A stretch of DNA of 64,000 bases from Squalus acanthias (taxonomy: Eukaryota): assembly GCA_030390025.1 (NCBI GenBank), contig JASTWF010000034.1, positions 4,154,001-4,218,000 of the forward strand. Reading direction: 5' to 3'. Below the pieces are notes generated by a model that did not search any database, had not been told where the DNA came from, and saw only the letters and a program-made list of their open reading frames with translations. This document shows positions 43,251-64,000 of the stretch, in pieces (the first letter of the stretch is position 1; the number at the start of each line of letters is the position of its first letter). The translations under genes and the position numbers were made by a program.

Positions 43251-46200
43251 TCTACACCTGGGAATACATTTACAGTGAATTGTTAATTTAGACACGATTC
43301 CCTCTACACTGGGGAATAAAGTTACAGTTAATTGTTAATTTTGAAATGATGCCCTCTATACCGGTGACTAACGTTACAGTTAATTGTTAATTTCGAAAAG
43401 ATGCCCTCTACATTGTTGAATAAAGTTTCAGTTAATTGTTAATTTCTACAAGATGCTCTCTACATTTTTAAATAAAGTTACAGTGAATTGTTAATTTCGA
43501 CATTATTCCCTCTACACCGGGGAATGACGTTACAGTTAATTCTTAACTTGACATGATGCACTCTGCACCGGGAATAAAGTAACAGTTAATGGTTAATTTA
43601 GAAATGATTCCCTCTACACCGGGGAATTACAATTACAGTTAATTGTTAATTTGACATGATGGCTTCTACACCATGGAATAAAGTTGAAGTTACTTTTGTA
43701 TTTGATATGTTACGCTCTACACCAGGGAATAATGTTGCAGTTAATTGGTAACATAAACATCAAACCCTCCACACTGGGGAATAAAGTTACAGTTTACTGT
43801 TTATTTAGAAATGATATCCTCTACACCGGGGAATAATGTTACAGTTAATTGTTAATTTGACATGATTCCCTCTACACCAGGAAATGAAGTTACATGTAAT
43901 TGTTAATTTGACATGATACCCTCTACACCGGGGAATAAAGTTACAGTTAATTGTTAATTTAGACATGATTCCCTCTACACCAGGAAATTAAGTTACATGT
44001 AATTGTTAATTAGACATGATGCCCTCCACACTGAGGAATAAAAGTACATTTATTTGTTAATTTTGACATGATTCCCGCTGCACCACGTAATATAGTTACA
44101 ATTATTTGCTCATTTTTACATGATGCACTTTACACAGGGAAATAAAGTTGCAGTTAATTGTTAATTCAGACATGATACCCTGTATACCGGGGAATAAAGT
44201 TACACTTAATTGTGGATTTGACATGATGCCCAATACACTGGGGAATAAATTTAAATTTAATTTTTAATTTGTCATGAAAACATCTACACTGGGGAAAAAG
44301 TTACAGTTGATTGTTCATTTTACATGATACCCTCTACACCGGGGAATAAAGTTACAGTAAATTGTTAATTTAGACATGATACCCTCTACACTGAGGAGTA
44401 AAGTTACAGTTAAATATTTATTTGACATGATTGCCTCTGCCCCGGGGAATAAACTTATATTTAATTGTTAATTTGACATGATGCAGTCTGCACCAGCGAA
44501 TAAAGTTACATTGAATTATTAATTTAGACATGATTCACGCTATTCCAGGAAATGAAGATACAGTTACTTTTTAATTTGGCATGATGCCCTCTACACCGGG
44601 AATAAAGTTACAGTTAATTGTTAATTTAGACATGATAACATCTACACCGGGGAATTAAAATAACAGATAATTTTTTATTTGACTTGATGTCCTCTACACC
44701 GGGGAATAACATTAATGTTAATTAATAATTTGATATGATACCCTCTTCACCAGAGTATAAAGTTACAGTTATTTTTTAATTTAGACATGATATCCTCTAC
44801 ACCAGGGAATAAAGTCACATTTAATTGTTAATTTAGACATGATTCCCTCCACACCGGGTAATATAGTTACAGTTAATTGCTAATTTAGACATGATACCCT
44901 CTACAGCGAGGAATAAAGATACAGTTAAATGTTACTTTAACATGATACCCTCTACATCGGGGAATGAAGGTACAGTTAATTGTTAATTTAGAAATTATTC
45001 CCTCTAAACCGAGTAATAAAGTTACACTTAATTATTAATTTGACATGATACACTTTAAAACAGGGAATAAAGTTAAAATTAATTGTTAATTTAGACATGA
45101 TGCCCTCTACACTGGGTAATAAAGTTACAGTTAATTGTTAATTTGACATGATACCCTCGAAACTGGGGAATAAAGTTAAAGGTAATTGTTAATTTGACAT
45201 GATACTCTCTATACTGGGGAATAAAGTTACAGTTGATAGTGAATTTGACATGATAACCTTGAAACTGGGGCATACTGTAACAGTCAATTGTTTATAAAAC
45301 TTGATAACCTCTACACCGGGCAATAAAGTTACAGTAAATTGTTAACTAAGACCTGATACCCTCTACACCGAGGAGTAAAGTTACAGTTAAATATTAATTT
45401 GACATGATTCCCGCTATTCCAGGGAATGAAGTTACAGTTAATTGTTAATTTGGCATGATGCCCTCTACACCGGGAATAAAGTTACAGTTAATTGTTAATT
45501 TAGACATGATGCCCTCTACACCGGGGAATTAAAATTACAGATAATTGTTTATTTGATTTGATGTCCTCTACACCTGGGACTACAGTTACAGATAATTGTT
45601 AATTGAGACATGATACCCTCCACACCGGGGAATTAGTTACAGTTAATTTCTAATTTAGACCTGATGCCCTCTATACCGGGGAATAAAGTTACAGTTAATA
45701 GTTAATTTAGACATTATGCCCTCTACACTGGGGAATAAATTACAGTTAATTGTTAAATTAGCCATGCTTCCCTGCACACCAGGGAATAAAGTTACAGTTA
45801 ATTGATAATTTAGACATGATTTCCTCTACACTGTGGAATAATGTTACAGTTATTTGTTAATTTTGACATGAAGCCCTCCAGAGTGGGGACTACAGTTACA
45901 GTTAATTGTTAATTTAGACATGATTCCCTCTACACCGGGGAATAAAGTTAGAGTTAATTGTTGATTTGAAATGATGTCCTCTACACCGGGGAATAAAGTT
46001 ACAGTAAATTGTTAATTTAGACATGATTCCCTCTACACCGGGAAATTAATTTACATTTAATTGTTAATTTGACATGATATCCTCTGCACCGGGTATAAAG
46101 TTACGGTTAATTGTTAATTTAGAAATCATTCCCTCGAAACCGGGGAATAAAGTTACACCTAATTGTTAATTTGACATAACAATCTCTACACTAGAGAATA

Positions 46201-47975
46201 AAGTTACAGTTAATTGTTAACTAAGACATGATACGCTCTACAAAGGGGAATTAAAATTACAGTTAATTGTTAATTTGAAATGATGCCCTCGACACTGGTG
46301 AAGAAATATTAAAGTTAATTGTTAATTTATCATGATACCCTCTACACTGGGGAATTATGTTACAGTTGATTGTGAATTTGACAAGAAACCCTTTACACTG
46401 GGATTATTGTAATATTCAATTGTGTATCAGACTTGATAACCTTTACTTCGGGCAATAAAGTTACAGTGAGTTTTTAATTTAGACATGATATCCTCAACAA
46501 CGAGCAATAAAATTACAGTTAATTGTTAATTTGACATGATGCACTCTACACCAGGGAATAAAGTTACATTGAATTGTTAATTTAGGCATGATTCCCGCTA
46601 TTCCAGGGAATGAAGTTACAGTTAATTGTTAATTTGACATGATGCCATCAACACGGGGAATAAAGTTACAGTTACTTGTTAATTTACACATGATACCCTC
46701 TGCACCGGGGAATAAAGTTACAGTTAATTGTTAATTTAGACATGATACCCTCTACAACGGGGTATAACATTAGAGTTAATTATTTATTTGATATGATACC
46801 CTCTTTACCAGGTTATAAAGTTACAATTAGTTGTTAATTTAGACATGATATCATTCTACACCGGGGAATAAAGTTAGAGTTAATTGTTAATTTGACATGA
46901 TTCCCACTACACCGGGGAATAAATTTAAAGTTAATTTTAAATTTGTCATGAAAACATCTACAATGAGGAAAAAAAGTTAAAGTTGATTATTAATTTTACT
47001 TGATTACCTCTACACCGGGAATAAAGTTACAGTTACTTGTTAATTTAGACACGATACCCTCTGCAACGGGGAATAAAGTTACAGTTAATTGTTAATTTAG
47101 ACATGATACCCTCTACAACGGGGTAGAACATTAAAGTTAATTATTTATTTGATATGATACCCTCTTTACCAGGGTATAAAGTTACAATTAATTGTTAATT
47201 TAGACATGATATCATTCTACACCGGGGAATAACGTTAGAGTTAATTGTTAATTTGACATGATTCCCACTACACTGGGGAATAAATTTAAAGTTAATTTTA
47301 AATTTGTCATGAAAACATCTACAATGAGGAAAAAAAGTTAAAGTTGATTATTAATTTTATTGATTACCTCTACACCGGGAATAAAGTTACAGTTACTTGT
47401 TAATTTAGACATGATACCCTCTGCAACGGGGAATAAAGTTACAGTTAATTGTTAATTTGACATGATACCCTCTACAACGTGAAATTAAATTTAGAGTTAT
47501 TTGTTAATTTGACATGATACACAATACACCGGGGAATAAAGTTATATTTAATTGTTAATTTAGACATGATACCCTCTACAACGGTGTATTGCATTAAAGT
47601 TAAGTGTTTATTTAATATGATACCCTCTTTGCCAGTGTATAAAGTTACAGTTAATTGTTAATTTTGACATGATATCCTCTACACCGGGGAATAAAATTAC
47701 AGTTAATTGTTAATTTAGACATGATACCCGCTACACTGGGGAATGAAGATACAGTTAATTGTTAATTTAGACATGATTCCCTCTACTCCGGGGAATGAAG
47801 TTACAGTTAATTGTTAATTTAGAAATGATTTCATCTAAACCGGGGAATAAAGTTGCACTTAATTTTTAATTTGACATGATACACTCTCCAACAGGGAATA
47901 AATTTACAGATAATTTTTAACTTAGACATGATGCCCTCTGCACAAGGAATAAAGTTACAGTTAATTGTTAATTAA

Positions 47976-48045
47976 GATCCCGGTTGAGGCCGTCCTCATG
48001 GGTGCGATCCATGGCTATCAGTTTCTGCTCGACGATTTTGCGTTG
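47976..48045 (-). mobile_element. Same Penelope-like fragment, copy 2
   Basis: Same junctions as copy 1, 5 clustered mismatches in 70 bp; reads QRKIVEQKLIAMDRTHEDGLNRD. Confidence 0.75.
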
Positions 48046-51000
48046 TCTAAACCTGGGAATACATTTACTGTGAATTGTTAATTTAGACATGATTCCCTCT
48101 ACACTGGGGAATAAAGTTACAGTTAATTGTTAATTTTGAAATGATGCCCTCTATACCGGTGACTAAAGTTACAGTTAATTGTTAATTTCGAAAAGATGCC
48201 CTCTACATTGTTGAATAAAGTTTCAGTTAATTGTTAATTTCTACAAGATGCCCTCTACATTTTTGAATAAAGTTACAGTGAATTGTTAATTTCGACATTA
48301 TTCCCTCTACACCGGGGAATGACGTTACAGTTAATTCTTAATTTGACATGATGCACTCTGCACCGGGAATAAAGTAACAGTTAATGGTTAATTTAGAAAT
48401 GATTCCCTCTACACCGGGGAATTACAATTACAGTTAATTGTTAATTTGACATGATGGCTTCTACACCATGGAATAAAGTTGAAGTTGTATTTGATATGTT
48501 ACGCTCTACACCAGGGAATAATGTTGCAGTTAATTGGTAACGTAAACATCAAACCCTCCACACTGGGGAATAAAGTTACAGTTTACTGTTAATTTAGAAA
48601 TGAGATCCTCTACACCAGGGAATAATGTTACCGTTAATTGTTAATTTGACATGATACCCTCTACACCGTGGATTTAAAATTACAATTAATTGTAAATTTG
48701 ACATGATGCCCTCTACACCAGGGAATAAAGTTTCAGTTATTTGTTAATTTCGACTAGATGCCCTCTACATTGGTGATTAAATTTACAGTTAATTGTTTAT
48801 TTGACATGATGCCCTATTCACCTGGGTATACATTTACAGTTAATTGTTAATTTAGATATGATATCCTCTACAACAGGGAATAATATGACAGCTAATTATT
48901 ACCTTAAACATCATACCCTCCACACCGGGGAATATAGTTACAGTTAATTGATAATTTTGACTTGATGCTCTCTACACAGGGGAATAAAGTTACATTAAAT
49001 GCTTAAGTTATACAAGATGACCTCTACAACGAGGAATAAAGTTACAGTTAATTGTTCATTTAGAAATGATACCCTCTAAATCGAGGTATAAAGTTACAAT
49101 AAATTGTTAATTTGACATGATGCCCTCTACACCTGGAGTAATGTTAAAGTTAATGGTTAATGTAGAAATGATTCCCTCTGCACCGAGGAATTCAAATTAA
49201 AGATAATTGTTAATTTGACATGATTTCCTCTACACCGGGGAATACAGTTACAGTTAATTTTTAACTTAGACATGATGCACTCTGCACTGGGGAATAAAGT
49301 TACACTTAATGTTTAATTTGACATGATGCCCTCTACAGCGGGGAATAAATTTACAGATAATTGTTAACTTGGACATGATGCCCTCTACACAGGGAATAAA
49401 GTTACATTAAATTGTTAATTTAAACATGAGAACCTCTTCACCGGGAAATAAAGTAATAGTTAATTATTAATTTGACATGATACCCTCTACACCGGGGAAT
49501 AAAGTTACAGTCAATTGTTAATTTCGACAAGATGCCCTCTACGTTGTTGAATAAAGTTACAGTTAATTGTTAATTTAGACAAGATGTACTCTACACCTGG
49601 GAATACATTTACAGTGATTTGTTAATTTAGACATGATACCCTCTACACTGGGTAATAAAGTTAGAGTTAATTGTTAATTTGACATGATGCCCTCTGCATC
49701 GGAGACTAAAGATACATGTTAATTGTTAATTTGACATGATACACTCTACACCGGGGAATACAGTTAGAGTTAATTGTTAATTTGACATGATGCCCTCTAC
49801 ATTGTTTAATAAAGTTACAGTTAATTGCTAATTTAGACATGATTCCTTCTACACCAGGGAATGACGTTAAAGTAAATTATTAATTTAGAAATGATTCCCT
49901 CTACACCGGGGAATGTCGTTACAGTTAATTGTTAATTTAGAAATGATTCCCTCTACACCGGGGAATTGAAATTACAGTTAATTGTTAATTTGACATGATG
50001 CCCTCTACACCGGGGAATAACGTTGACGTTAATTTTGTATTTGATATGTTATCCTCAACACCACGGAATAATTTTACAGTTAATTGTTAACGTAAACATC
50101 AGAAACTCCACACCGGGGAATAAAGTTACAGTTAATTGTTAATTTGACATGATATACTCTACACCTTGGAATTAAAATTACAATTATTAGTTAATTTGAC
50201 ATGATGCCCTCTACACCGGGGAATAAAGTTTCAGTTATTTGCTAATTTAGACATGATATCTTCGACACCGGGGAATAAAGTTACAGTTCATTTTTAATTT
50301 GTCATGATAACCTCTACACTGGGGAATAAAGTTAGAGTTGATTGTGAATATGACACGAGGCCCTTTACACTGGAGAATACTGTTTCAGTCCATTGTTTAT
50401 AAGATTTGTTATCCTCTAAGCTGGGGAAAACAGTTACAGTTGATTGTTAATTTGAAATGATATCCTCTACACCGGGGGAAAAAGTTACAGATAAATGCTA
50501 ATTTGACATGATTGCCTCTGCACCGGGGTATAAAGTTAAAGTGAATTGTTAATTTAGACATGATTCCCTCTACACCGGGGAATGAAGTTAAAGTTAATTG
50601 TTAATTTGACATGATGCCCTCCACAACGGGACTAAAGTTACAGTTAATTGTTAATTTAGAAATCATTCCCTCTTAACCAGGGAATAAAGTTACAGTTCTT
50701 TGTTAATTTTACATGATAAACTCTACACCAGTGAATGAATTTGCAGTTAATTGTTAATTTCGACATGATACCCTCTACAACGGGAAATTAACATTATAGT
50801 TATTTGTTTATTTGACATGATGTCCTCTACAACGGGAAACAAAGTTACAGTTAATTGATAATTTGACATGATACCCTCTACAAAGGGAAATTAAAATTAC
50901 AGATAATTATTTATTTGACATGATACACTCTACAGCGGAAAATTAAAATTACAGTTAATTGTTAATTTCGACATGATGTCCTCTACACCGGGGAATAAAG

Positions 51001-52159
51001 TTAGAGTTAATTGCTAATTTAGACATGATACCCTGTACAACGGGAAATTAAAATTACAGTTAATTGTTTATTTGACATGATGCCCTCTTCACCTGGGTAT
51101 AAAGTTACAGTAAATTGTTAATATAGATATGATATCCTATACACCAGGGAATAATGTTACAGTTAATTGTTAACTAAAACATCATACCCTCCACACCGGG
51201 GAATGTAGTTACAGTTAATTGATAATTTTGACTTGATGCTCTCTACACCGGGGAATAAAGTTACATTTAATTGTTAAGTTATACAAGATGCCCTCTACAA
51301 CGGGGAATAAAGTTACAGTTAATTGTTAATTTAGACATGATACCCTCTAAGCCGGGGTATAAAGTTACAATTAATTTTTAATTTGACATGATGCTCTCTA
51401 CACCGGGAATAAAGTTACAGTTCATGGTTAATATAGAAATGATTCCCTCTACACCGGGCAATTAAAATTACAGTTAATTGTTAATTTGACATGATGTCCT
51501 TTAAACTGGCGAATATAGTTACTGTTAATTGTTAATTTGACATGATGCCCACTACACCGGGGAATAAATTAACTGATAATTGTTAACTTAGACATGATGC
51601 CTTCTGCACAGGGAATAAAGTTACAGTAAATTGTTAATTTAGACATGAGAACCTCCACCGGGAAATAAAGTAACAGTTAATTATTAATTTGACATGATGC
51701 CTTCTACACCTGGGAATAAATTTACAGTGAATTGTTAATTTAGACATGATTCGCTGTACACTGGGGATTAAAGTAACAGTTAATTGTTAATTTCGACCTG
51801 ATACCCTCTACACTGGCGAATTAAAATTACAGTTAATTGTTAATTTGACATGCTGTCCTCTACACTGGGGAATAAAGTTACAGTTAATTTTGTATTTGTT
51901 ATATTACCCTCTACACCAGGGAATAATGTTACAATTAATTGTTAATGTAAACATCAAACCCTCTACACCGGGAATAAAGTTACAGTAAATTGTTAATTTA
52001 GGCATGATACCCTCTACAACGAGGAATAATGTTACAGATAAATGTTAATTTGACATGATTGTCTCTGCACCGGGGAATAAAGTTAACGTGAATTGTTACT
52101 TTAGACATGATTCCCTCTATTCCGCAGAATTAAGTTACAGTTAATTGTTAATTTGACAT

Positions 52160-52743
52160 TGTTGGTAAAAAATGAATTCACTTGAGTCTGTCTCAAAGCA
52201 GAAGATCACAGTTTATTTAACAGAGCGCATTGGGAGAAGAGCCATACACCCCGCGGTCTAGTAATCAACTTCTCGTCGTTACAGTGGTATCGGAACTTCT
52301 TTTAGACATTATAGAGCCGGATACGCAATTCATTACATACAAATGTCTCCACCAAATCACATTCCCCTAGCAACAAGCCCCTTACCCAATCATATATCTC
52401 CACCACTGACTTAATTATAATCTGCACTATAAGCTAAACTTTCTTGTTACTTCTCTTCCGAAACTGAAAACATACAGAGTGTTGCGCCACATTTGCTTGG
52501 CCGGACTGGCTAGTCATGCGGTGATTGATTCTCAATTGTAACCGTTGGGCTATTATCGTAGTCTTTTGTTCCTTATTGGTGGGCTTCAGCTATCTCGCAC
52601 GTACGCATGTTGACAGTAGACATTACTCATCACACTGTTTCAGAGAAGCCATCTGTCTTGTCTTATTTACGAGTTCACCTTTTACAGCACGTTCTTTAAA
52701 TCTTTACGTTGCTTCTTTAAGCCCTATAATTTACACCCTAACA
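52160..52743 (-). repeat. 3' LTR (584 bp)
   Basis: Minus strand begins TGTTAG (52743) directly after PPT and ends CCAACA (52160); AATAAA at 52212-52217; homologous to 57968-58320. Confidence 0.92.
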
Positions 52744-52937: not shown

Positions 52938-54068
52938 TCATATCCACACATTTCTCTCTCCAGGTGTCAATTGGTTAACCATCATGACACTTACAGCATG
53001 CCATGACATTTGAGCGCAACAACATTTTAACAATAGGACCAGACCATACATCACTAATATTATAACAAAGAACAAAATCAATCCTTGTACTACTGATGTC
53101 CCGAGTGATCCCAACCATCCAGTTGCCCAGCCCCAAAGGGTGGATGCTGGAGGTTGTTTTAATTTTTTTTACTTCTTCCTGTATGCGTGATGCCAAGTCA
53201 GTTATTGCTTCCGAGTTGTCTGGTATGTAGGTGCAGCATTTTGTACCTATTAGGGCACAGGTTCCCCCTTTTACTGCCAACACATAGTCAAGGGCCATCC
53301 GATTTTGTAGAGCTACTGTGCGGAGGGCTGCCATGTCTGCATTAACCTTAACTAGGGCTTCAGTAGTATCGTTGGCCACCTGCTGCAAGACGGGGGCCAG
53401 GTTAATGGATTCCCTTGCCAATTTACCAGCTCCATACCAGGAGAACGCAATTGCCCAGAATCTTTCAGTCTCCGTGATGGCTCGTCTGGCTCTCCCGTGG
53501 AGGTCCTTCAGTGAACCCATGTGTTATATGTAGCGTTCAACATAAGCCAGATAACAAGAACCCGTCCATTCCCGGGGCAACCAGGGATAGGCCCTATGAC
53601 CGCACACGAAATGAGTCCCGTTGTAGGGGGTATACTTATTTACCTCTGGGGGGTCCGATTGTACCTCGTTCTCAGGAACGGTGGTAGATAGGAAGCGTTA
53701 TATGTTGACTGTGTCCACCCACTACAATATTCTGAGTTGTACCCATGACGTTGGAGCTTTGCCATAGTGATGCCGTCTGTCTTGGCTTCATAACAGCCCT
53801 CACTTGTGCATCCTGCTCTAACTCCAAACATCTAACTGACCGTCTCATCATCACTATGTGGGATTGGTTGTAGGGGGACTCCGTCCTCCGAGTGCGTGGG
53901 GACATGGGCGCAGACCCAACAGCTGGCAACATCAACTCTCTTGGCATATGTGTATGACATATATAAAAAGGTGTTCACCCGTAACCCTGTTTTGGCCCAT
54001 GGGGGCACTCTAGCCTGAGTCCTCCCGAGGCTACATATTATGATTATACAAACAAGAAAACTACACAT
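52938..54068 (-). pseudogene. env: Gamma-type retroviral envelope, disrupted
   Basis: Signal peptide MCSFLVCIIIICSLG, CWVC (CXXC), NGTHFVCG...WTGSCYL, furin site RARR, immunosuppressive domain LQNRMALDYVLA, CX6CC (CALIGTKCC), and after a frameshift the anchor GLILFFVIILVMYGLVLLL ending TGA at 52938-52940. In-frame stops at 53832, 53640 and ~53526. Confidence 0.95.
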
Positions 54069-54147
54069 GATAGTTAACTTTATGTTAACAATGTCCCAAA
54101 GGCTATATCGCCAACCGAACCACTTTGTTGCTTGTAGATTTTATTTT

Positions 54148-54180
54148 CCTGTGGGGGTGAATAGAATACGGTCATTAGGC
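54148..54180 (-). promoter_or_regulatory. Candidate env splice acceptor with branch point
   Basis: Minus strand CCTAATGACCGTATTCTATTCACCCCCACAG|G: CTAAT branch-like motif, pyrimidine tract, CAG, 80 nt before env ATG. Confidence 0.7.
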
Positions 54181-54402
54181 TGGTTCCTCGATCATAATCA
54201 TTTGGATTCCCTCCTCCTGCTCGACCGATTGGAGTCGATGGGATTGTTCCCATACATACTTCACGATACATCCCATGGCGTATCCCATTATGACAATGCA
54301 TATTGTCCATACCAACGTTCGTACCAGCACCCACTTGCATTCTTTGTATTGTCTAGCGTATTCTTCACTTCCCACAAAAGGTACTTGCTCTGGTGTAGCC
54401 AT
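54175..54402 (-). CDS. 75-aa single-pass membrane ORF between pol and env (candidate accessory gene)
   Basis: ATG two bases after the integrase stop (TAA-AT-ATG, context AATATGG); hydrophobic WVLVRTLVWTICIVIMGYAMGCIV flanked by charged segments; acidic C-terminus. Confidence 0.5.
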   Translation of the reverse strand: MATPEQVPFVGSEEYARQYKECKWVLVRTLVWTICIVIMGYAMGCIVKYVWEQSHRLQSVEQEEGIQMIMIEEPA

Positions 54403-54404
54403 AT

Positions 54405-55270
54405 TTAAGCTGGCGAAGGGTCATAGACTTTTAGCTGTGTCCAGTGCTTCCATCGTCCCATGCCCTTCATATCAATGCAAGCACACGTATCTCCACTAAG
54501 TAAAATCTGATATGGTCCTGACCATTTTGGGGCAAGCTCGGGATTCCCTGGTAAACCTTTAACTATTAACTTAGTCCCGGCTGGAGGGATATATGGGAAC
54601 GCGGTCAATTCTAAATCCTTATCCTTTTCTTCGTGTCTGTCCCGCATTTGCTGCCTCATTTCCTTTAATTGACTGCTAAATTCGAGGACATACCTTCGGA
54701 GCCTATCCTTTAGAGGACCCACATCCTCTCCTCCAGTTATTATGCCATGGGAGAGTTGCATTGCCCTCCCCGTCATTTGCTCATATGGTGATAAGCCCGT
54801 TGTTCGGTTTGGAGTGGCTTTTAGTTTCATTAAGACTGCTGGTAACATATCTACCCAATGTTTGTCCCCTAAAGCCTAGGCTAAGGCTGTTTTCAATGTT
54901 TGGTTCATTCGTTCCATCATTCCAGAACTTTGGGGATTGTACGGAATATGGAATTTCTGCTTATGCCCATCCACTTGCATACATTCTTCACTACTGCTCC
55001 CGTAAAGTGAGTTCCCTGATCTGAGTCAATTTGGATCGGTATTCCCCACCTGGGAATTATTTCCTCTGCCATTATTCGTGCCATGGTGGTGGCAGTACAG
55101 TTCCGGGTTGGGAATGCCTCGACCCACCTAGTAAACTGGTCTATTATTAACAGGCAATACTTCTTACCCCTTGACGTGGGGAGTGGTCCGATAAAGTCTA
55201 TTTGTATAATTTCCCATGGGCCCCTCGGCCGTTGTTGGTGGGCCATCTGTATCTTAACGGGTCGTCCTGT
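54405..55270 (-). pseudogene. pol: Integrase core and C-terminal domain (HHCC domain absent)
   Basis: PWEIIQIDFIGPLP...IDQFTRWVEAFP...IDSDQGTHFT, frameshift near 54960 to HIPYNPQSSGMMERMNQTLK (DDE complete), one stop at ~54876, TGLSPYEQMTGR, WSGPYQIL (GPY/F motif). Confidence 0.95.
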
Positions 55271-55760
55271 TTTGAGGTCGTCCATACTGACTTCATTGCC
55301 TTGCATATATTCCCAAAGTCTCCTTCCTCCTTCCCGTCCCGGGCCAATTTTTGCACTTCCTACTGTTGCCAAATGGCAAAGTGGCTTTCCCCAGTTTACT
55401 TTTTTCCCGTCTCCCTGTACCCAGGTTAACTTTCCTTGTCGTGAATCTATTAACAAATTAAATTCTTTTAACAAATCTATTCCTAAGATAGTCCCCTCAC
55501 TGGTTGGGCATACATAAAATTGTGCGGGTAATAGTTGTCCCGCTAATTCCAATACTTGTACCTCACTTTTAAATGCATGTAAACGCTCCCCTCCCAACCC
55601 CACTATGTCTATCCTTTGTTTGGTGAGGGGAAGGGGGAAAATCGGTAATGGATACAGAAGCTCCCGTGTCTACACACATATCGCACTGCCTGCCCCCTAA
55701 CAGTGCCGGTACATAGACTCTGGGATCTTCCTTCTCCCTCTTGATGGGGGCCGCTGCTAG
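55270..55760 (-). pseudogene. pro: Retroviral aspartic protease
   Basis: In frame after gag TGA: LAAAPIKREKEDPRVYV...MCVDTGASVSIT (DTGA at 55659-55670); 1-nt frameshift in C-run at ~55635; then IVGLGG flap and ILGIDLL. Confidence 0.93.
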
Positions 55761-56684
55761 TCAGTGGTCGCCAACATGTTCCTTTACATACTGCAGGAAC
55801 TTTTGATACATATCAATGGTCCCGGTCTGGTTTGGCTCTTCCTTTTTTGTCCAACACCTCTCGGTTGAATGTCCCGGTCTTCCGCAATTCCCACATACCG
55901 GTCGGTTTTGTTTGGGGGCCCTACATTCTTTTGCCATATGACCCAACTTCCCACAGTTAAAACATGCCCCTTTCTTTCTTTGCGACAGTTCCCGTATTCT
56001 TGCGGCCCCTACTCTTTCTTGTTTTATTACTAGTGTTCGTTCCGCCTCTTTGGCATCTATCTGACACGTCCACTGGACCGCCGCATCATATGTATTCGCC
56101 GGCACTATTCCCATTTTTAATATCGCTTGGTGGGATTGGGACAACCCGTTCTTAAACATTTGAATAAAGGGCTGGTCTGTCATCTGGGGATTTGCTTGTC
56201 CCGATGATTCCTGGTATACGACGAACAATCGTTCGCCATAATAACTACTGCTTTCCCCTTTCCGCTGTTTTATTATCATTATAAGTCCCCAATTTGATGA
56301 GGATCCTCCTAAGGCCGCCTGGACCGCTGCTTTAAAGGGGTTGTAGCCCGCGAGTTGGGCCGCCTTGTCCGCAATTAAGGCGATACGGCTGGTACAGCCA
56401 CTGTCTCGGTGACCGTTTTGGATATCCACCTCCCTCCATTTGTCAGCCGGGCATTTAGCCCGTACCAGCTGGTGGATATCCCGAGGATGGAGGTCGTGGA
56501 TATCCCACATCTCCTCGAGATTTCTCCAAAATTCTCCATTTGTGCTACGGGGCTTCAATGTTCCCAAACCTTTCAATATTGTTTGTGATTCTAAGTGGCT
56601 AAAAGCTTTGTACTTGGCTGTGGTATTCTGTACCGTTCCCTCTCTTTTTAAAGGGGCTGCCTTGACTACGTTTGGGTTCTTTTT
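55761..56684 (-). CDS. gag: Gag capsid + nucleocapsid portion (open frame, 55761-56744 ORF)
   Basis: MHR-like IKQRKGESSSYYGERL, FIQMFKNGL, two CX2CX4HX4C knuckles CFNCGKLGHMAKEC (55923-55964) and CGNCGRPGHSTERC (55854-55895). Confidence 0.93.
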   Translation of the reverse strand, partial: KKNPNVVKAAPLKREGTVQNTTAKYKAFSHLESQTILKGLGTLKPRSTNGEFWRNLEEMWDIHDLHPRDIHQLVRAKCPADKWREVDIQNGHRDSGCTSRIALIADKAAQLAGYNPFKAAVQAALGGSSSNWGLIMIIKQRKGESSSYYGERLFVVYQESSGQANPQMTDQPFIQMFKNGLSQSHQAILKMGIVPANTYDAAVQWTCQIDAKEAERTLVIKQERVGAARIRELSQRKKGACFNCGKLGHMAKECRAPKQNRPVCGNCGRPGHSTERCWTKKEEPNQTGTIDMYQKFLQYVKEHVGDH

Positions 56685-56890
56685 GTGTAATTTCCTAATA
56701 TCTATTTCTTCCACCTGTGCACTGGCTACGTTTTCTTCAACCATTTCTTGTTCAAGAGCTTACTGTGCTGCAAATATCAGCGGCATGGTTCCCTCTTTGT
56801 TCCTGATTTTGTATTTTCTGGTGCGCCTTTATTTTTATTACTGCTGCTAGTGTTGGAGCCTTTGCAGCTTCCAAGAGGGCCTCTACCCTC
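56685..56890 (-). pseudogene. pol: Displaced RNase H C-terminal fragment plus linker
   Basis: Manual translation: RVEALLEAAKAPTLAAVIKIKAHQKIQNQEQRGNHAAD, matching the retroviral RNase H (K/C)xHQ...GNxxAD motif; followed by ALEQEMVEENVASAQVEEIDIRKLH. Confidence 0.85.
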
Positions 56891-57197
56891 CGCTATTAAT
56901 GCAAAATTTGGTATATACCTCCGACTGTTATTAAAGAGTCCTAACACTTTTCTGACCTCACCTTACCGAGACGGGTCTTGGCATCTCTTGGATCGCCTTC
57001 CGTCGGTCTTGTGCCATGGTCCTTACCCCCTGGGACAATTGTTGTCCCAAATATGTGACCGTAGTCTGCCCAATTTGTGCCTTTTTCGGGTTTACTTTGA
57101 ACCCTCCTGTTTCTAGGGCTTGCAGAACCACCACCAGGGCGGCAGCATGCCCTCTGCTGTCTTCTGATGCTATCAACATATCATCTATATATTGTAA
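56888..57197 (-). pseudogene. pol: Displaced reverse transcriptase palm/thumb fragment
   Basis: LQYIDDMLIA (YIDD 57180-57191)...GFKVNPKKAQ...VTYLG...AIQEMPRP, frameshift at ~56961, then EVRKVLGLFNNSRRYIPNFALIAE. Confidence 0.93.
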
Positions 57198-57477
57198 CTC
57201 TTGTTCTAATTCAAGAATTATTTTATTTTTACTTGCAAGTCTAGTGTGGAGTCGCTGCACCTTGTTCGTTAATGCAACAAATTGGTTTACTAGTATTACC
57301 CTCGCCTTTTTCGTCTTTTTCTGTTATTGACCCTCTACCACTCTCTTTTACCTTCGGATTCTGGAGCGGATCCCACCCCTCCTTCGTCATCTTATCAACT
57401 AAACCCTTCCGGTCGTCTGCATAGATCCTAGTAAGGGACCCCATTGGGCCCCATTCTATTTGTTTCCCCGACGCCAT
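57198..57477 (-). pseudogene. gag: Probable Gag N-terminus with coiled-coil start
   Basis: MASGKQIEWGPMG... first substantial ORF after the leader and splice donor; after a frameshift KKTKKARVILVNQFVALTNKVQRLHTRLASKNKIILELEQE (heptad-like). Assignment positional. Confidence 0.65.
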
Positions 57478-57486
57478 TTGCAGTCC

Positions 57487-57504
57487 AACTTACAGTCTTA
57501 CCTG
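57487..57504 (-). promoter_or_regulatory. Candidate major splice donor
   Basis: Minus strand CAG|GTAAGACT|GTAAGT just upstream of the gag ATG. Confidence 0.65.
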
Positions 57505-57947
57505 GTGCTGAGTTCCTCTACTCGGGCTTGTTCTTGATACTTTAAAGACCTTCAATTTGTTAATCAGTCACAACACATATATATATTTGCTGACTGCACG
57601 ATCCCAGGTTGCTTTGGAGCCTCTACGCCTACTTGATCCTGACCATCACGTGGGACTACGTCCTCTTAATTCAGGCTCAGGCTAGGTGTTTGAAACAGGC
57701 ACCCAACTTGTCCGTGTCGTTCCATCACTCACTCATTCCTTTGCGACATTTATCGCTACACAGTGTTCCCTTTAGTACTTGCAATCCACACTCTAACAAC
57801 TGTGTTCTCCTACCTCTCACAGACCTTACTTGATTCTTGTATCTACGGCACTGTCACTCCACCTTTCCAGGTGACTCAATTTCTGGACGGTCAAAATTGA
57901 CTTCTCGTCCGAGTTCACCGGTGCGGGCGGTCTTTCAGGTCCAGAGC

Positions 57948-57965
57948 ATCCTGCCGACTACGCCA
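57948..57965 (-). promoter_or_regulatory. Primer binding site, tRNA-Ser
   Basis: TGGCGTAGTCGGCAGGAT is the exact complement of the vertebrate tRNA-Ser(AGA/TGA) 3' end ATCCTGCCGACTACGCCA; 2 nt from the 5' LTR end. Confidence 0.95.
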
Positions 57966-57967
57966 AT

Positions 57968-58320
57968 TATTGGTGAACAATGAATTCACTCTAGTCTGTC
58001 TCAAAGCAGAGGATCACAGTTTATTTAGCAGAGCATTCTGCGAGAAGAGCCATAGACCCCGCGGTCTATTAATCAACTTCTAGTTGTTACAGTGGTATCG
58101 GAACTTCTTTTATACATTATATGGTCGGGTATGCAATTCATTACATACAAATGTCTTCACCCAATCACATTCCCCCAGCAACAAGCTCCTTAATTATAAT
58201 CTGCACTTTAAGCTAAATTTTCTTGTTACTTCCCTTCCGAAACAATAAACATATGGAGTGTTGGCCAGACTGGCTAGTCATGCGGTGATTGGTTCTGAAG
58301 TGTAACCGTTGTGCTATTAT
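57968..58320 (-). repeat. 5' LTR, truncated at its U3 end
   Basis: Aligns to 52160-52556 with two internal gaps; TATAAAA (minus) at 58108-58114; homology stops at 58320 where CR1 sequence begins. Confidence 0.92.
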
Positions 58321-58958
58321 TGCCATGGCATAGGAGTTTATTCAAGTGCGGGGAGTCAAAAGGACTTTGATAGTGGTCGGCGACTGTATAGTCAGTGGGA
58401 TAGATACTGTTCTCTGCAGCCACGGGCGAGAGTTCCGAAGGTTGTGCTGCCTGCCCGGTTCCAGGGTTAAAGATATCTCCTGGCAGCTGGAGATGAATTT
58501 GGATTGGGAGAGGGAGGATCCAGTTGCAGTGGTCCATGTAGGAACCAAAGACGAGGAATGAGTTTCTGCTGATGGAGTTTGGGGAGCTAGGATCCAAATT
58601 AAAAAGCAGATCCTCAAAAGTAATAATCTCTAGATTAATAGCTAGGCCACGCGCAAATTGGCACAGGGACAAACAGATCCGAGATTTAAATGCGTGGCTA
58701 AAAGTGTGGTGTGGAAGAAAGGGATTTGATTCATGGGGCACTGGCGCCAGTACTGGGGAAAGAGGGAGCTGTTCTGTTGGTACGGTCTCCACTTAAACCG
58801 GGCTGGGACCAGTGTCCTGGGAAATGGAATAACTAGGGCTGTAGGTTGGGTTTGGAACTACAAAGGGTGGAAGTATCAGGTGAGGGGAAATTTAGAAATC
58901 TAAAGAGACACGTCAAGACAATGGAGCAGTGTAGCGATTTGGGTAATTACAAGCAGAG
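58321..58958 (+). mobile_element. CR1 LINE ORF1 fragment (SGNH/GDSL esterase domain), degraded
   Basis: LIVVGDCIV (GDS-like)...CCLPGSRVKDI...VVHVGTKD (GTND-like)...KVIIS...LNAWLKVWCGRKGF...DGLHLN in shifted frame. Confidence 0.9.
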
Positions 58959-62584: not shown

Positions 62585-62850
62585 GAGAGAGGGAGAAAAG
62601 GTGAGAGAAAGGGCGAGGGAAAGGAAGAAACAGGGGACAAGGGAGAGACAGAAAGTGAGTGATAGGGAGAAGAGCCAAAAGGGAGAAACAAGCAGGGTGA
62701 GACAGAGCGAGAGAGACATAGACAGACAGAGACAGACAGATAGACCAGGTGAGACACAGGGAGAGTGAGAGATCGGGTTAGTGAAAGATAGAAATACAGG
62801 GAAATGAGAGAAAGAGAGAGACATAACATGAGAGATAGGGAGTGGGAAAA
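62585..62850. repeat. GA-rich low-complexity tract
   Basis: Degenerate (GA)n/(GACA)n purine-rich run. Confidence 0.85.
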
Positions 62851-63751
62851 ACTGTCCCCATCAAATACTCCCAGGACAGCTATAACAAGGGTTGGATACA
62901 GAGTAAAGCTCCCTCTACACTGTACCATCAAACACTCCCAGGGCCGGTACAGCACGGGTTAGATACAGAGTAAAGCTCCCTCTACACTGTCCCATCAAAC
63001 ACTCCCAGGGCAGATACAGCACGGGTTAGATACAGAGTAAAGCTCCCTCTACACTGCTCCATCAAACACTCCCAGGACAGGTACAGCACGGGTTAGATAC
63101 AGAGTAAAGCTCCCTCTACAGTGTCCCATCAAACACTCCCAGGGCAGGTACAGCAGGGGTTATACACAGAGTAAAGCTCCCTCTACACTCTCTCATCAAA
63201 CACTCCCAGGGCAGGTACAGCACGGGTTAGATACAGAGTAAAGCTCCCTCTAAACTGCCCCGTCAAACATTCCCAGGGCAGGTACAGCCCGGGTTGCACA
63301 CAGAGTAAAGCTCCCTCTACACTGTCCCCATCAAACACTCCCAGGGCAGGTACAGCCCGGGTTGGATACAGAGTAAATATTCCTCTACACTGCCCCATCA
63401 AACACTCCCAGGGCAGGTACAGCACGGGTTAGATACAGAGTAAAGATGCTCTATGCTGTCCCTTCAAACAATCCCAGAGCAGGTACAGCACGGGTTAGAT
63501 ACAGAGTAAAGCTCGCTCTGCTCTGCCCCATCAAACACTCCCAGGGCAGGAGCAGTACGGGTTTGATCCAGAGTAAAGCTCCCTCTACACTGCCCCATCA
63601 CACACTCCCAGGGCAGGAGCAGTACGGGTTAGATACAGAGTAAAGCTCCCTCTATACTATCCCATCAAACACTCCCAGGGCAGGTACACCACGGATTACA
63701 TACAGAATAAAGCTGCCTCTACACTGTCCCATCAAATGCGCCCAGGGCAGG
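62851..63751. repeat. 67-68 bp tandem repeat, about 13 copies
   Basis: Unit GAGTAAAGCTCCCTCTACACTGTCCCATCAAACACTCCCAGGGCAGGTACAGCACGGGTTAGATACA; starts at 62901, 62968, 63035, etc. Confidence 0.96.
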
Positions 63752-64000
63752 AGATCGGGAATGAGGAAATGGCTGAGAAATTAAATAAGTACTTTGTTTC
63801 TTTCTTCACAGAGGAAGACACAAAAAACCTCCGAGAAATACGAGAAAACCAAGGGTGTGGTGAGAATGAAGAACTTAAAGAAATTATTATTAATCAAAAA
63901 ACATGGATTGAGAGTTGGTTAACAGACAGAAAACAAAGTGTAGGGAGAAACGTGTCTTTTTCAGGATGGCAGGCTGTAACTAGTGGGTTCCGCAAGGATC
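63752..64000 (+). mobile_element. CR1 LINE ORF2 fragment with internal deletion (runs off right edge)
   Basis: EEMAEKLNKYFVSFFTEED...ELKEI joined directly at ~63900 to WIESWLTDRKQSV...FSGWQAVTSG.PQGS. Confidence 0.9.

Follow-up and report, generated by a model that had tools for sequence, protein, structure and literature searches.

A protein-coding gene between pol and env of shark endogenous retroviruses is kept by purifying selection

Does the short frame lying between the integrase (IN) and env of a rearranged shark endogenous retrovirus (ERV) encode a viral protein, and, if so, how would that protein be made and what might it do? The question arose in a window of 64,000 nt, the whole stretch of Squalus acanthias DNA analyzed (contig JASTWF010000034.1), whose minus strand carries a 6.3-kb provirus flanked by what is left of a 5′ LTR and by a 3′ LTR (Table 1). 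The original prediction, made from the letters of the window, proposed that the frame, here ORF X, is an undescribed membrane accessory gene.

The window provirus itself is a rearranged, non-autonomous copy in which ORF X is a passenger. Its gag has two CCHC knuckles and terminates at an in-frame TGA, and its rearranged layout is common to 4 of the 10 nearest copies mapped. The gag TGA is followed by CTAG and is in frame with pro (55755–55766); TGA followed by CTAG is a strong readthrough context. Where they can be aligned, the two LTRs are 79 to 89% alike, whereas six sister copies give 95 to 98%; this points to recombination or rearrangement of the window copy more than to great age. The provirus borders on a long array of ~52-nt satellite units (44000–52140), and a 67-nt tandem array occupies the end of the window (62779–63880); another contig, C889, carries a large tandem cluster of tRNA-Ser-like genes and 66 of the 75 pattern matches. 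Near 54074 the window copy is missing 19 nt that are present, together with an earlier Met, in all 29 sister copies, so the apparent env start at 54068 is the family's second Met. The predicted gap of 336 nt between the pol stop and this Met is correct for the window copy, while the family gap is 334 nt.

Table 1. Features of the provirus and its pol–env junction, in window positions
Feature	Position	Strand	Remark
5′ LTR, remaining part	57968..58322	minus	
Primer-binding site	57948..57965	minus	match to host tRNA-Ser(AGA)
Leader splice donor	57806..57822	minus	exon end 57814
Rearranged gag-pro with displaced RT (YIDD) and RNase H/IN pieces	55270..57478	minus	
Integrase core and C-terminal domain, broken	54405..55269	minus	
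Upstream acceptor candidate of the original prediction	54581..54599	minus	acceptor-like
Partial TURBS-like signal, hypothetical	54456..54468	minus	AUGGGA at 54461-54456
Candidate weak ORF X acceptor	54410..54428	minus	putative; pyrimidine-rich stretch, AG 7 nt before ATG
pol stop and 2-nt spacer ahead of ORF X ATG	54403..54407	minus	stop TAA at 54407-54405
ORF X, accessory gene under purifying selection	54402-54175	minus	ATG to TAA, 75 aa
Hydrophobic, predicted membrane-spanning segment	54262..54333	minus	codons 24–47
env splice acceptor	54149..54176	minus	first exon base 54148
env 5′ leader, conserved between lineages	54069..54148	minus	
env remnant, gamma-type TM subunit (Pfam TLV_coat), broken, partly deleted	52938..54068	minus	
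3′ LTR	52160..52743	minus	

The local features from which the prediction was drawn were largely as claimed. ORF X starts 2 nt past the pol stop in a good Kozak context (A at –3 and G at +4 in the window copy; a purine at –3 with G at +4 in all four lineages described below), and the spacing from stop to ATG is identical across these lineages, the stop being TAA or TAG. At its other end, the env acceptor AG lies at 54150–54149 and the branch-point region overlaps the ORF X stop. At the composition of ORF X, the chance of 74 open codons is p ~0.007. The contrast drawn between an open ORF X and its broken flanks did not hold, however: of the 30 nearest copies, 22 had ORF X open and 25 an open IN tail, and the env start was open in 26 of 29. 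Because IN and env are at least as often open, intactness alone is uninformative. The segment could then be read as a non-coding spacer with RNA signals for env splicing, or as a stray piece of IN or of the env leader, open by chance. Its overlap with the env branch region would suit such a spacer, as would the decay of the frame after insertion, which matches that of the neighboring genes in speed, and the replication of related families without ORF X.

To assess conservation, we searched the 3.7-Gb genome, which listed 546 DNA and 524 protein candidates, figures that are not copy numbers. The ORF X set comprised 160 loci, 144 of which span the region and 124 of which are distinct by sequence; they were picked partly by protein match, which favors open copies. 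Across the 124, the ATG is kept in 122 and the TAA in 118, and the frame is open in 95 of 122 scored copies. Through recombinant copies and database relatives we reached four lineages. Lineage A is that of the window, and lineage V differs from it by 25% in ORF X DNA and by ~26% in gag-pro. Lineage W has an ORF X of 76 aa and a distinct env N-terminus, and lineage Z one of 77 aa with 41 to 47% identity to A, V, or W. Lengths across the four are thus 75, 75, 76, and 77 aa, and all indels between lineages are whole codons. The env N-terminus downstream of ORF X differs between A/V, W, and Z, yet ORF X is retained. Within the env leader (54069–54148; L002, L135, L179), a 24-nt block is nearly identical in the four lineages though env differs, possibly as an RNA element or a recombination patch. 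In several recombinant copies (L066, L080, L081, L092, L098, and L102–L109), a pol of the related family B is joined to an A/V-type IN tail, ORF X, and env, and in some recombinants ORF X itself is mosaic.

Divergence between the lineages carried a clear signal of constraint. Comparing 31 lineage-A with 18 lineage-V copies, picked by DNA only, we obtained a net dS of 0.67 to 0.72, a dN of 0.18, and a dN/dS of 0.25 to 0.27 (95% interval 0.11–0.53), whereas the +1 and +2 frames gave dN/dS of 0.62 to 0.81 with intervals spanning 1. Eight pairs among A, V, and W gave 0.15 to 0.29 at dS of 0.7 to 1.1, and five pairs of Z against A, V, or W gave 0.26 to 0.43 with upper bounds of 0.49 to 0.79, at synonymous sites near saturation. 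The dN/dS test proposed along with the prediction has therefore come out in favor of a gene, at 0.15 to 0.43 between lineages with all upper bounds below 1. We then contrasted variants shared among copies with those found in a single copy, the latter taken as having arisen after insertion. The ratio was 0.31 in the 124 copies (p 0.0007), with no stop among the shared and 11 among the single-copy variants, and the nonsynonymous/synonymous ratio was 0.26 in 65 copies chosen by DNA (p 0.0006). For comparison, env gave 0.25, IN 0.08, and four control frames 0.93 to 1.75. One reverse frame was also low (0.41, p 0.023), likely through third positions shared with ORF X.

ORF X is a protein-coding viral gene kept by purifying selection, and the frame that had been predicted from one broken copy is kept in sister proviruses with dN/dS well below 1. 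The non-coding reading is already contradicted by the dN/dS and shared-variant tests, and we regard it as barely credible: dN/dS falls well below 1 in the ORF X frame only, synonymous divergence near saturation is incompatible with an RNA element, and the frame would stay open under 56 random changes with a chance of ~2%, while the indels are in-frame only. A stray origin is countered by the separate stops that cut ORF X off from pol and env in all lineages. The frame is neither a frameshifted IN tail nor an env leader, as the pol stop, its own ATG, and its own stop are found in all four.

Three other uses of the region were considered and rejected. Splicing of ORF X to env as a fusion is ruled out by an in-frame stop kept between ORF X and the env Met in all lineages. 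A frameshift fusion with pol would meet an in-frame stop seven codons upstream in A and V, and no slippery heptamer was found by eye. A second ORF of 31 codons, beginning inside the ORF X stop, has its ATG in only 92 of 124 copies and a stop confined to a sublineage, and it is without selection signal.

In individual proviruses, ORF X is dispensable in cis, since 25 of the 30 W loci no longer have its start and it decays after insertion as its neighbors do. Separately, of 150 matches to the protein of lineage Z, about 55 are limited to residues 1–46 (L272–L288). In those read, a deletion has put the beginning and the helix of ORF X in frame with the C-terminal portion of env; the fusion is 331 aa long in 2 of 15 and shorter in the others, and it is probably a spreading deletion derivative.

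We next asked how widely the gene is distributed. It is absent from four related ERV families, of which family B begins env 8 to 9 nt past the pol stop and families C, D, and E have other pol–env junctions. On a tree of IN C-termini (22 rows from local families and from database relatives with the anchor motif), one change accounts for the four ORF X lineages with modest support (70/93). ORF X therefore likely had a single origin in the clade and was retained across env swaps. The families without ORF X have arrangements of their own. In family D (L244–L248), the pol stop overlaps an ATG (TAATG) opening an unrelated 57-aa Met-Gly frame with a hydrophobic segment and an acceptor-like site inside; its copies are too alike for a selection test, and the frame possibly serves as exon 2 of a membrane protein made by splicing. 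In family E, L258 has an ATG-less frame with a hydrophobic segment past the pol stop, behind an AG, and in L249–L253 the hydrophobic frame is broken and most of env is missing too. In family C (L239–L243), env is open from an acceptor-like site ~55 nt past the pol stop, well ahead of the first Met, and an upstream leader exon is possible.

Searches beyond the genome returned very little. No homolog of the window protein was found among 5.8 billion proteins in the 41- to 132-aa range, and the single outside match of the profile searches, P0121 (Logan), is a lineage-W type protein. The PDB profile search with ORF X gave no match under E 0.75, and the Pfam search no credible match, Vpu and Flu_M2 included. 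In the ESM Atlas, the nearest named cluster to the window protein was M2, at a score of 0.83 that lies below the reliability threshold and serves as a lead only, and the lineage-Z protein had no match. Viral and metagenome contigs searched for ORF X together with the IN tail yielded nothing; one cluster of close Pol relatives includes a record from Mustelus asterias. In the literature we found no shark ERV described as having such an ORF, although Repbase/Dfam, subscription papers, and survey supplements may annotate it; the accessible part of an anamniote Env survey reports no accessory genes in its epsilon-related ERVs (bioRxiv 2021.11.23.469661). As far as sequence comparison can tell, ORF X is a new family without detectable homolog outside its clade.

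How the protein is expressed is less certain. We examined probable-RNA contigs from six of eight runs whose RNA status was guessed, X1–X5 and X7; for X1, the splice joint itself argues for RNA. Contigs of X1, and of X1 only among the rows listed, connect the leader with position 54148 (three rows with the joint and one with a loose end), which is the env splice. As the acceptor lies 3′ of the ORF X stop, env mRNA skips ORF X, in agreement with the prediction. The acceptor of the predicted junction, 54148, was also correct, but the donor is 57814 and not 57501: sequence letters put it at 57814/57813, and all 10 long copies have this site, whereas the CAG that precedes GT at 57501 in the window is TTG in five of the seven copies shown and the site is missing or altered in two. 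At the candidate ORF X acceptors, no joint or loose end appeared among the rows listed, which is evidence neither way given that contigs drop rare forms; the probable-RNA contigs are continuous from IN into ORF X.

The route that we favor, with about an even chance, is a splice from the leader donor at 57814 to a weak candidate acceptor just before the ORF X ATG. An AG lies 1 to 7 nt ahead of the ATG in seven of seven copies tested, and, by pyrimidines and AG-free zone, the best AG of each lineage ranks in the top 1.6 to 5.4% of 1147 AGs. The last 20 nt of pol have a pyrimidine fraction of 0.60 to 0.70 in all 8 ORF X copies but of 0.25 to 0.35 in all 7 from families lacking ORF X, a contrast that rests on one evolutionary origin (tree support 70/93). 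The position of the AG varies between lineages, and in lineage V it is preceded by A, making a weak acceptor. The upstream acceptor of the original prediction, at 54581, matches the env acceptor in pyrimidine content; three to six ATGs intervene before ORF X, and look-alikes occur in families C and D, which are without ORF X.

The same protein might instead be made by termination and reinitiation at the end of pol, a TURBS-like element holding ribosomes that restart 2 nt on; these would come from Gag-Pol or from a short ORF of the IN tail, carried by an mRNA with its splice at 54581. We consider this unlikely but weighed it closely, as several features of the junction point that way. The stop-NN-AUG arrangement, among the commonest TURBS contexts in the accessible text of PMC11921876, recurs in each of the four lineages, with either of two stop codons, and the start at +5 from the stop lies inside the –8 to +6 range given there. 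Of 114 copies, 102 have a purine-UGGGA motif ~58 nt ahead of the AUG. All 8 copies taken from the four ORF X lineages have it and none of the 7 from the four families that lack ORF X, the chance being 6 to 8% per 40-nt window. GAAGGG (54468–54463) is complementary to CCCUUC (54420–54415), and the AAGGG/CCCUU pairing is possible in all four lineages. The last 26 codons of pol are also synonymously conserved: only 2 of 17 sites differ between W and A and 1 of 18 between W and V, against about half upstream (p 0.002 and 5e-5).

Other observations weaken the case. Met-Gly codons account for the motif, which has a single origin, and the minimum-energy fold buries UGGGA in A and V. The synonymous island is gone against lineage Z (7 to 8 of 17 to 18 differ, p 0.3 to 0.6), so recombination can explain it. 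The fourth pair of the P1 candidate (the AAGGG/CCCUU helix) is not C–G, and this helix closes 7 to 8 nt before the stop, below the 12 to 24 nt of all TURBS in the accessible text of PMC11921876, although its distance of 12 to 13 nt from the AUG falls in the 12- to 23-nt range stated there. A GUGCUU/AAGCAC hairpin (z –4.2) that has the C–G fourth pair was discarded, being broken in lineage Z. An Rfam search had no match, and Pol made at readthrough level would probably give little protein. We found no description of a retroviral TURBS in the literature, and the accessible text of PMC11921876 mentions none. That a shark retrovirus clade evolved, independently of lentiviruses, a Vpu/BM2-like membrane protein expressed by TURBS reinitiation at the pol end is somewhat less likely still; if true, it would be the first TURBS signal in a retrovirus and a new translation mode for the group, with the protein dose tied to Gag-Pol. 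We continue to favor a spliced mRNA and leave the remaining probability to other routes.

The encoded protein is built around one hydrophobic segment, as had been claimed. It was seen in the window copy (best 19-residue Kyte–Doolittle mean 2.14, from residue 29) and in all 95 open A/V copies (1.46 to 2.30). The C-terminal flank is more positive than the N-terminal one in 94 of these 95, and W and Z agree; the window copy has no flank-charge difference (0 and 0). From the hydrophobic stretch and flank charge, a single-pass topology with the N-terminus outside, the C-terminus inside, and no signal peptide is predicted with good confidence. AlphaFold modeled one long helix (pTM 0.41) with pLDDT of 90 to 96 over residues 21–50. 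Among 10 copies across the lineages, 17 residues are invariant, including Y19, E21, W24, W32, C35, G44, K48, and W51, and 13 of the 17 fall within residues 19–51. The C-terminal tail is the least conserved part, and the acidic tail seen in the window proved lineage-specific, its net charge ranging from –4 to +3 across 10 copies. With the invariant residues clustered in this way and the tail variable, the function likely resides in the helix and its aromatic flanks. Two motifs were set aside: GxxxG, present in 89 of 95 A/V copies, has Cys at position 40 in lineage Z, and ExxxM[IV], a sorting motif, is absent in lineage Z.

On balance, we think it reasonably probable that ORF X is a selected accessory gene of Vpu-like character. 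A clade of tRNA-Ser-primed ERVs carries it, a minor spliced mRNA of its own would yield the protein, and this small single-pass product, with its N-terminus outside and no signal peptide, would bind a host membrane protein through its conserved helix. Vpu binds tetherin through its TM helix in this manner (PMC4517115, accessible part). The role by which such binding might aid release or protect Env is put forward more tentatively, as possible by analogy. Compared with a gated channel or a fusogen of the FAST type, binding to another membrane protein seems the better fit to the helix pattern.

An oligomeric channel like M2, BM2, or SH, in place of a binder of host proteins, is also unlikely in our judgment. 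A length under 100 aa with one helix does fit the viroporin class as described in the accessible part of PMC4517115, and the predicted N-out topology, the invariant C35 and G44 with several Thr and Gly in the helix, and the ESM Atlas lead to M2 agree with it. Against this, the Atlas lead falls short of the reliability threshold, with no match at all for the protein of lineage Z, Pfam returned neither Flu_M2 nor Vpu, and the His-x-x-x-Trp pattern is not conserved. This pattern is the TM motif of M2 and BM2, and here it is found only in lineage W, which has His28 where the others have Arg or Gln. The TM His of M2 is noted in the accessible part of PMC4517115.

A cell–cell fusogen of the FAST/sORF2 type, serving Env-independent spread, would likewise be a small N-out single-pass protein, in the case of sORF2 from an LTR element (PMC11952523, accessible part), and aromatic residues adjoin the membrane in ORF X. 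Its second residue is Ala or Asp, however, leaving no N-terminal Gly myristoylation motif; residues 48–62 have a net charge of 0 to +2 and thus no polybasic patch after the helix; and the viruses with ORF X keep env. We hold this reading to be very unlikely and prefer a Vpu-like binder of host membrane proteins.

ORF X is thus well supported as a gene and new as a family, while a membrane accessory role is suggested by analogy with Vpu. Lentiviruses are the main group from which small membrane accessory proteins are known. A selected new family in an ERV clade of the cartilaginous-fish type shows that early-branching vertebrates, too, had complex retroviruses and that such proteins arose more than once, and two neighboring families have other short hydrophobic frames at the same pol–env position. 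The host partner of ORF X would point to a shark antiviral or receptor system. Surveys restricted to gag, pol, and env miss genes of this kind.

Small accessory ORFs between pol and env are also found in FIV (OrfA) and EIAV (S2). These are lentiviral and unrelated to ORF X, and neither is known as a single-pass membrane protein; EIAV S2 is reportedly directed against SERINC. Influenza B BM2 and hapavirus U5 resemble ORF X as small membrane proteins at a stop–start junction with UGGGA upstream, and both are viroporins made through TURBS (PMC11921876, accessible text). ORF X departs from them in helix spacing, in the C–G pair, and in having no conserved His-x-x-x-Trp.

Judged by features rather than by RT phylogeny, the clade shares with the XtERV-S/ERV-S type a tRNA-Ser primer site, an in-frame gag stop, and YIDD (PMC8278194) and a gamma-type TM (PMC8278194; bioRxiv 2021.11.23.469661), as far as the accessible parts of these sources go. 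In the same account, XtERV-S is simple, its env overlaps the pol stop, and a dUTPase-like segment follows IN (PMC8278194). The shark clade has two Gag zinc knuckles, in contrast to the ERV-L-like Gag without knuckles in the accessible description of XtERV-S, and it has ORF X. Its pol stops right after the IN C-terminal domain, with no dUTPase-like segment. In snakehead retrovirus (SnRV), ORF1 lies between pol and env, and the primer is tRNA-Arg. The likeness to SnRV, again by features and not by RT phylogeny, is to a retrovirus of fish that falls in none of the named genera, has subgenomic mRNAs for small ORFs (ORFs 1–3 of 52, 94, and 76 aa; PMC12193657), and uses gag-pol readthrough (PMC13517186), according to the accessible parts of both. 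SnRV has a 205-codon 3′ ORF, and none such follows env in four copies read here. It is a fish precedent for small accessory ORFs, set beside ORF X by description and not by sequence.

The closest parallel is HIV-1 Vpu, although ORF X shows no sequence, Pfam, or PDB-profile similarity to it and is not a Vpu homolog. In HIV-1, vpu lies directly 5′ of env, as ORF X does, and shares an mRNA with it, whereas the env splice skips ORF X, which is therefore not on the env mRNA. The tail of Vpu is the part recruiting host machinery, and ORF X has no conserved acidic or phospho-Ser tail. What the two have in common is a Trp in the helix, with an N-out orientation predicted for ORF X, and the overall plan of a single-pass membrane accessory protein of less than 100 aa (PMC4517115 and PMC6116218, accessible parts).
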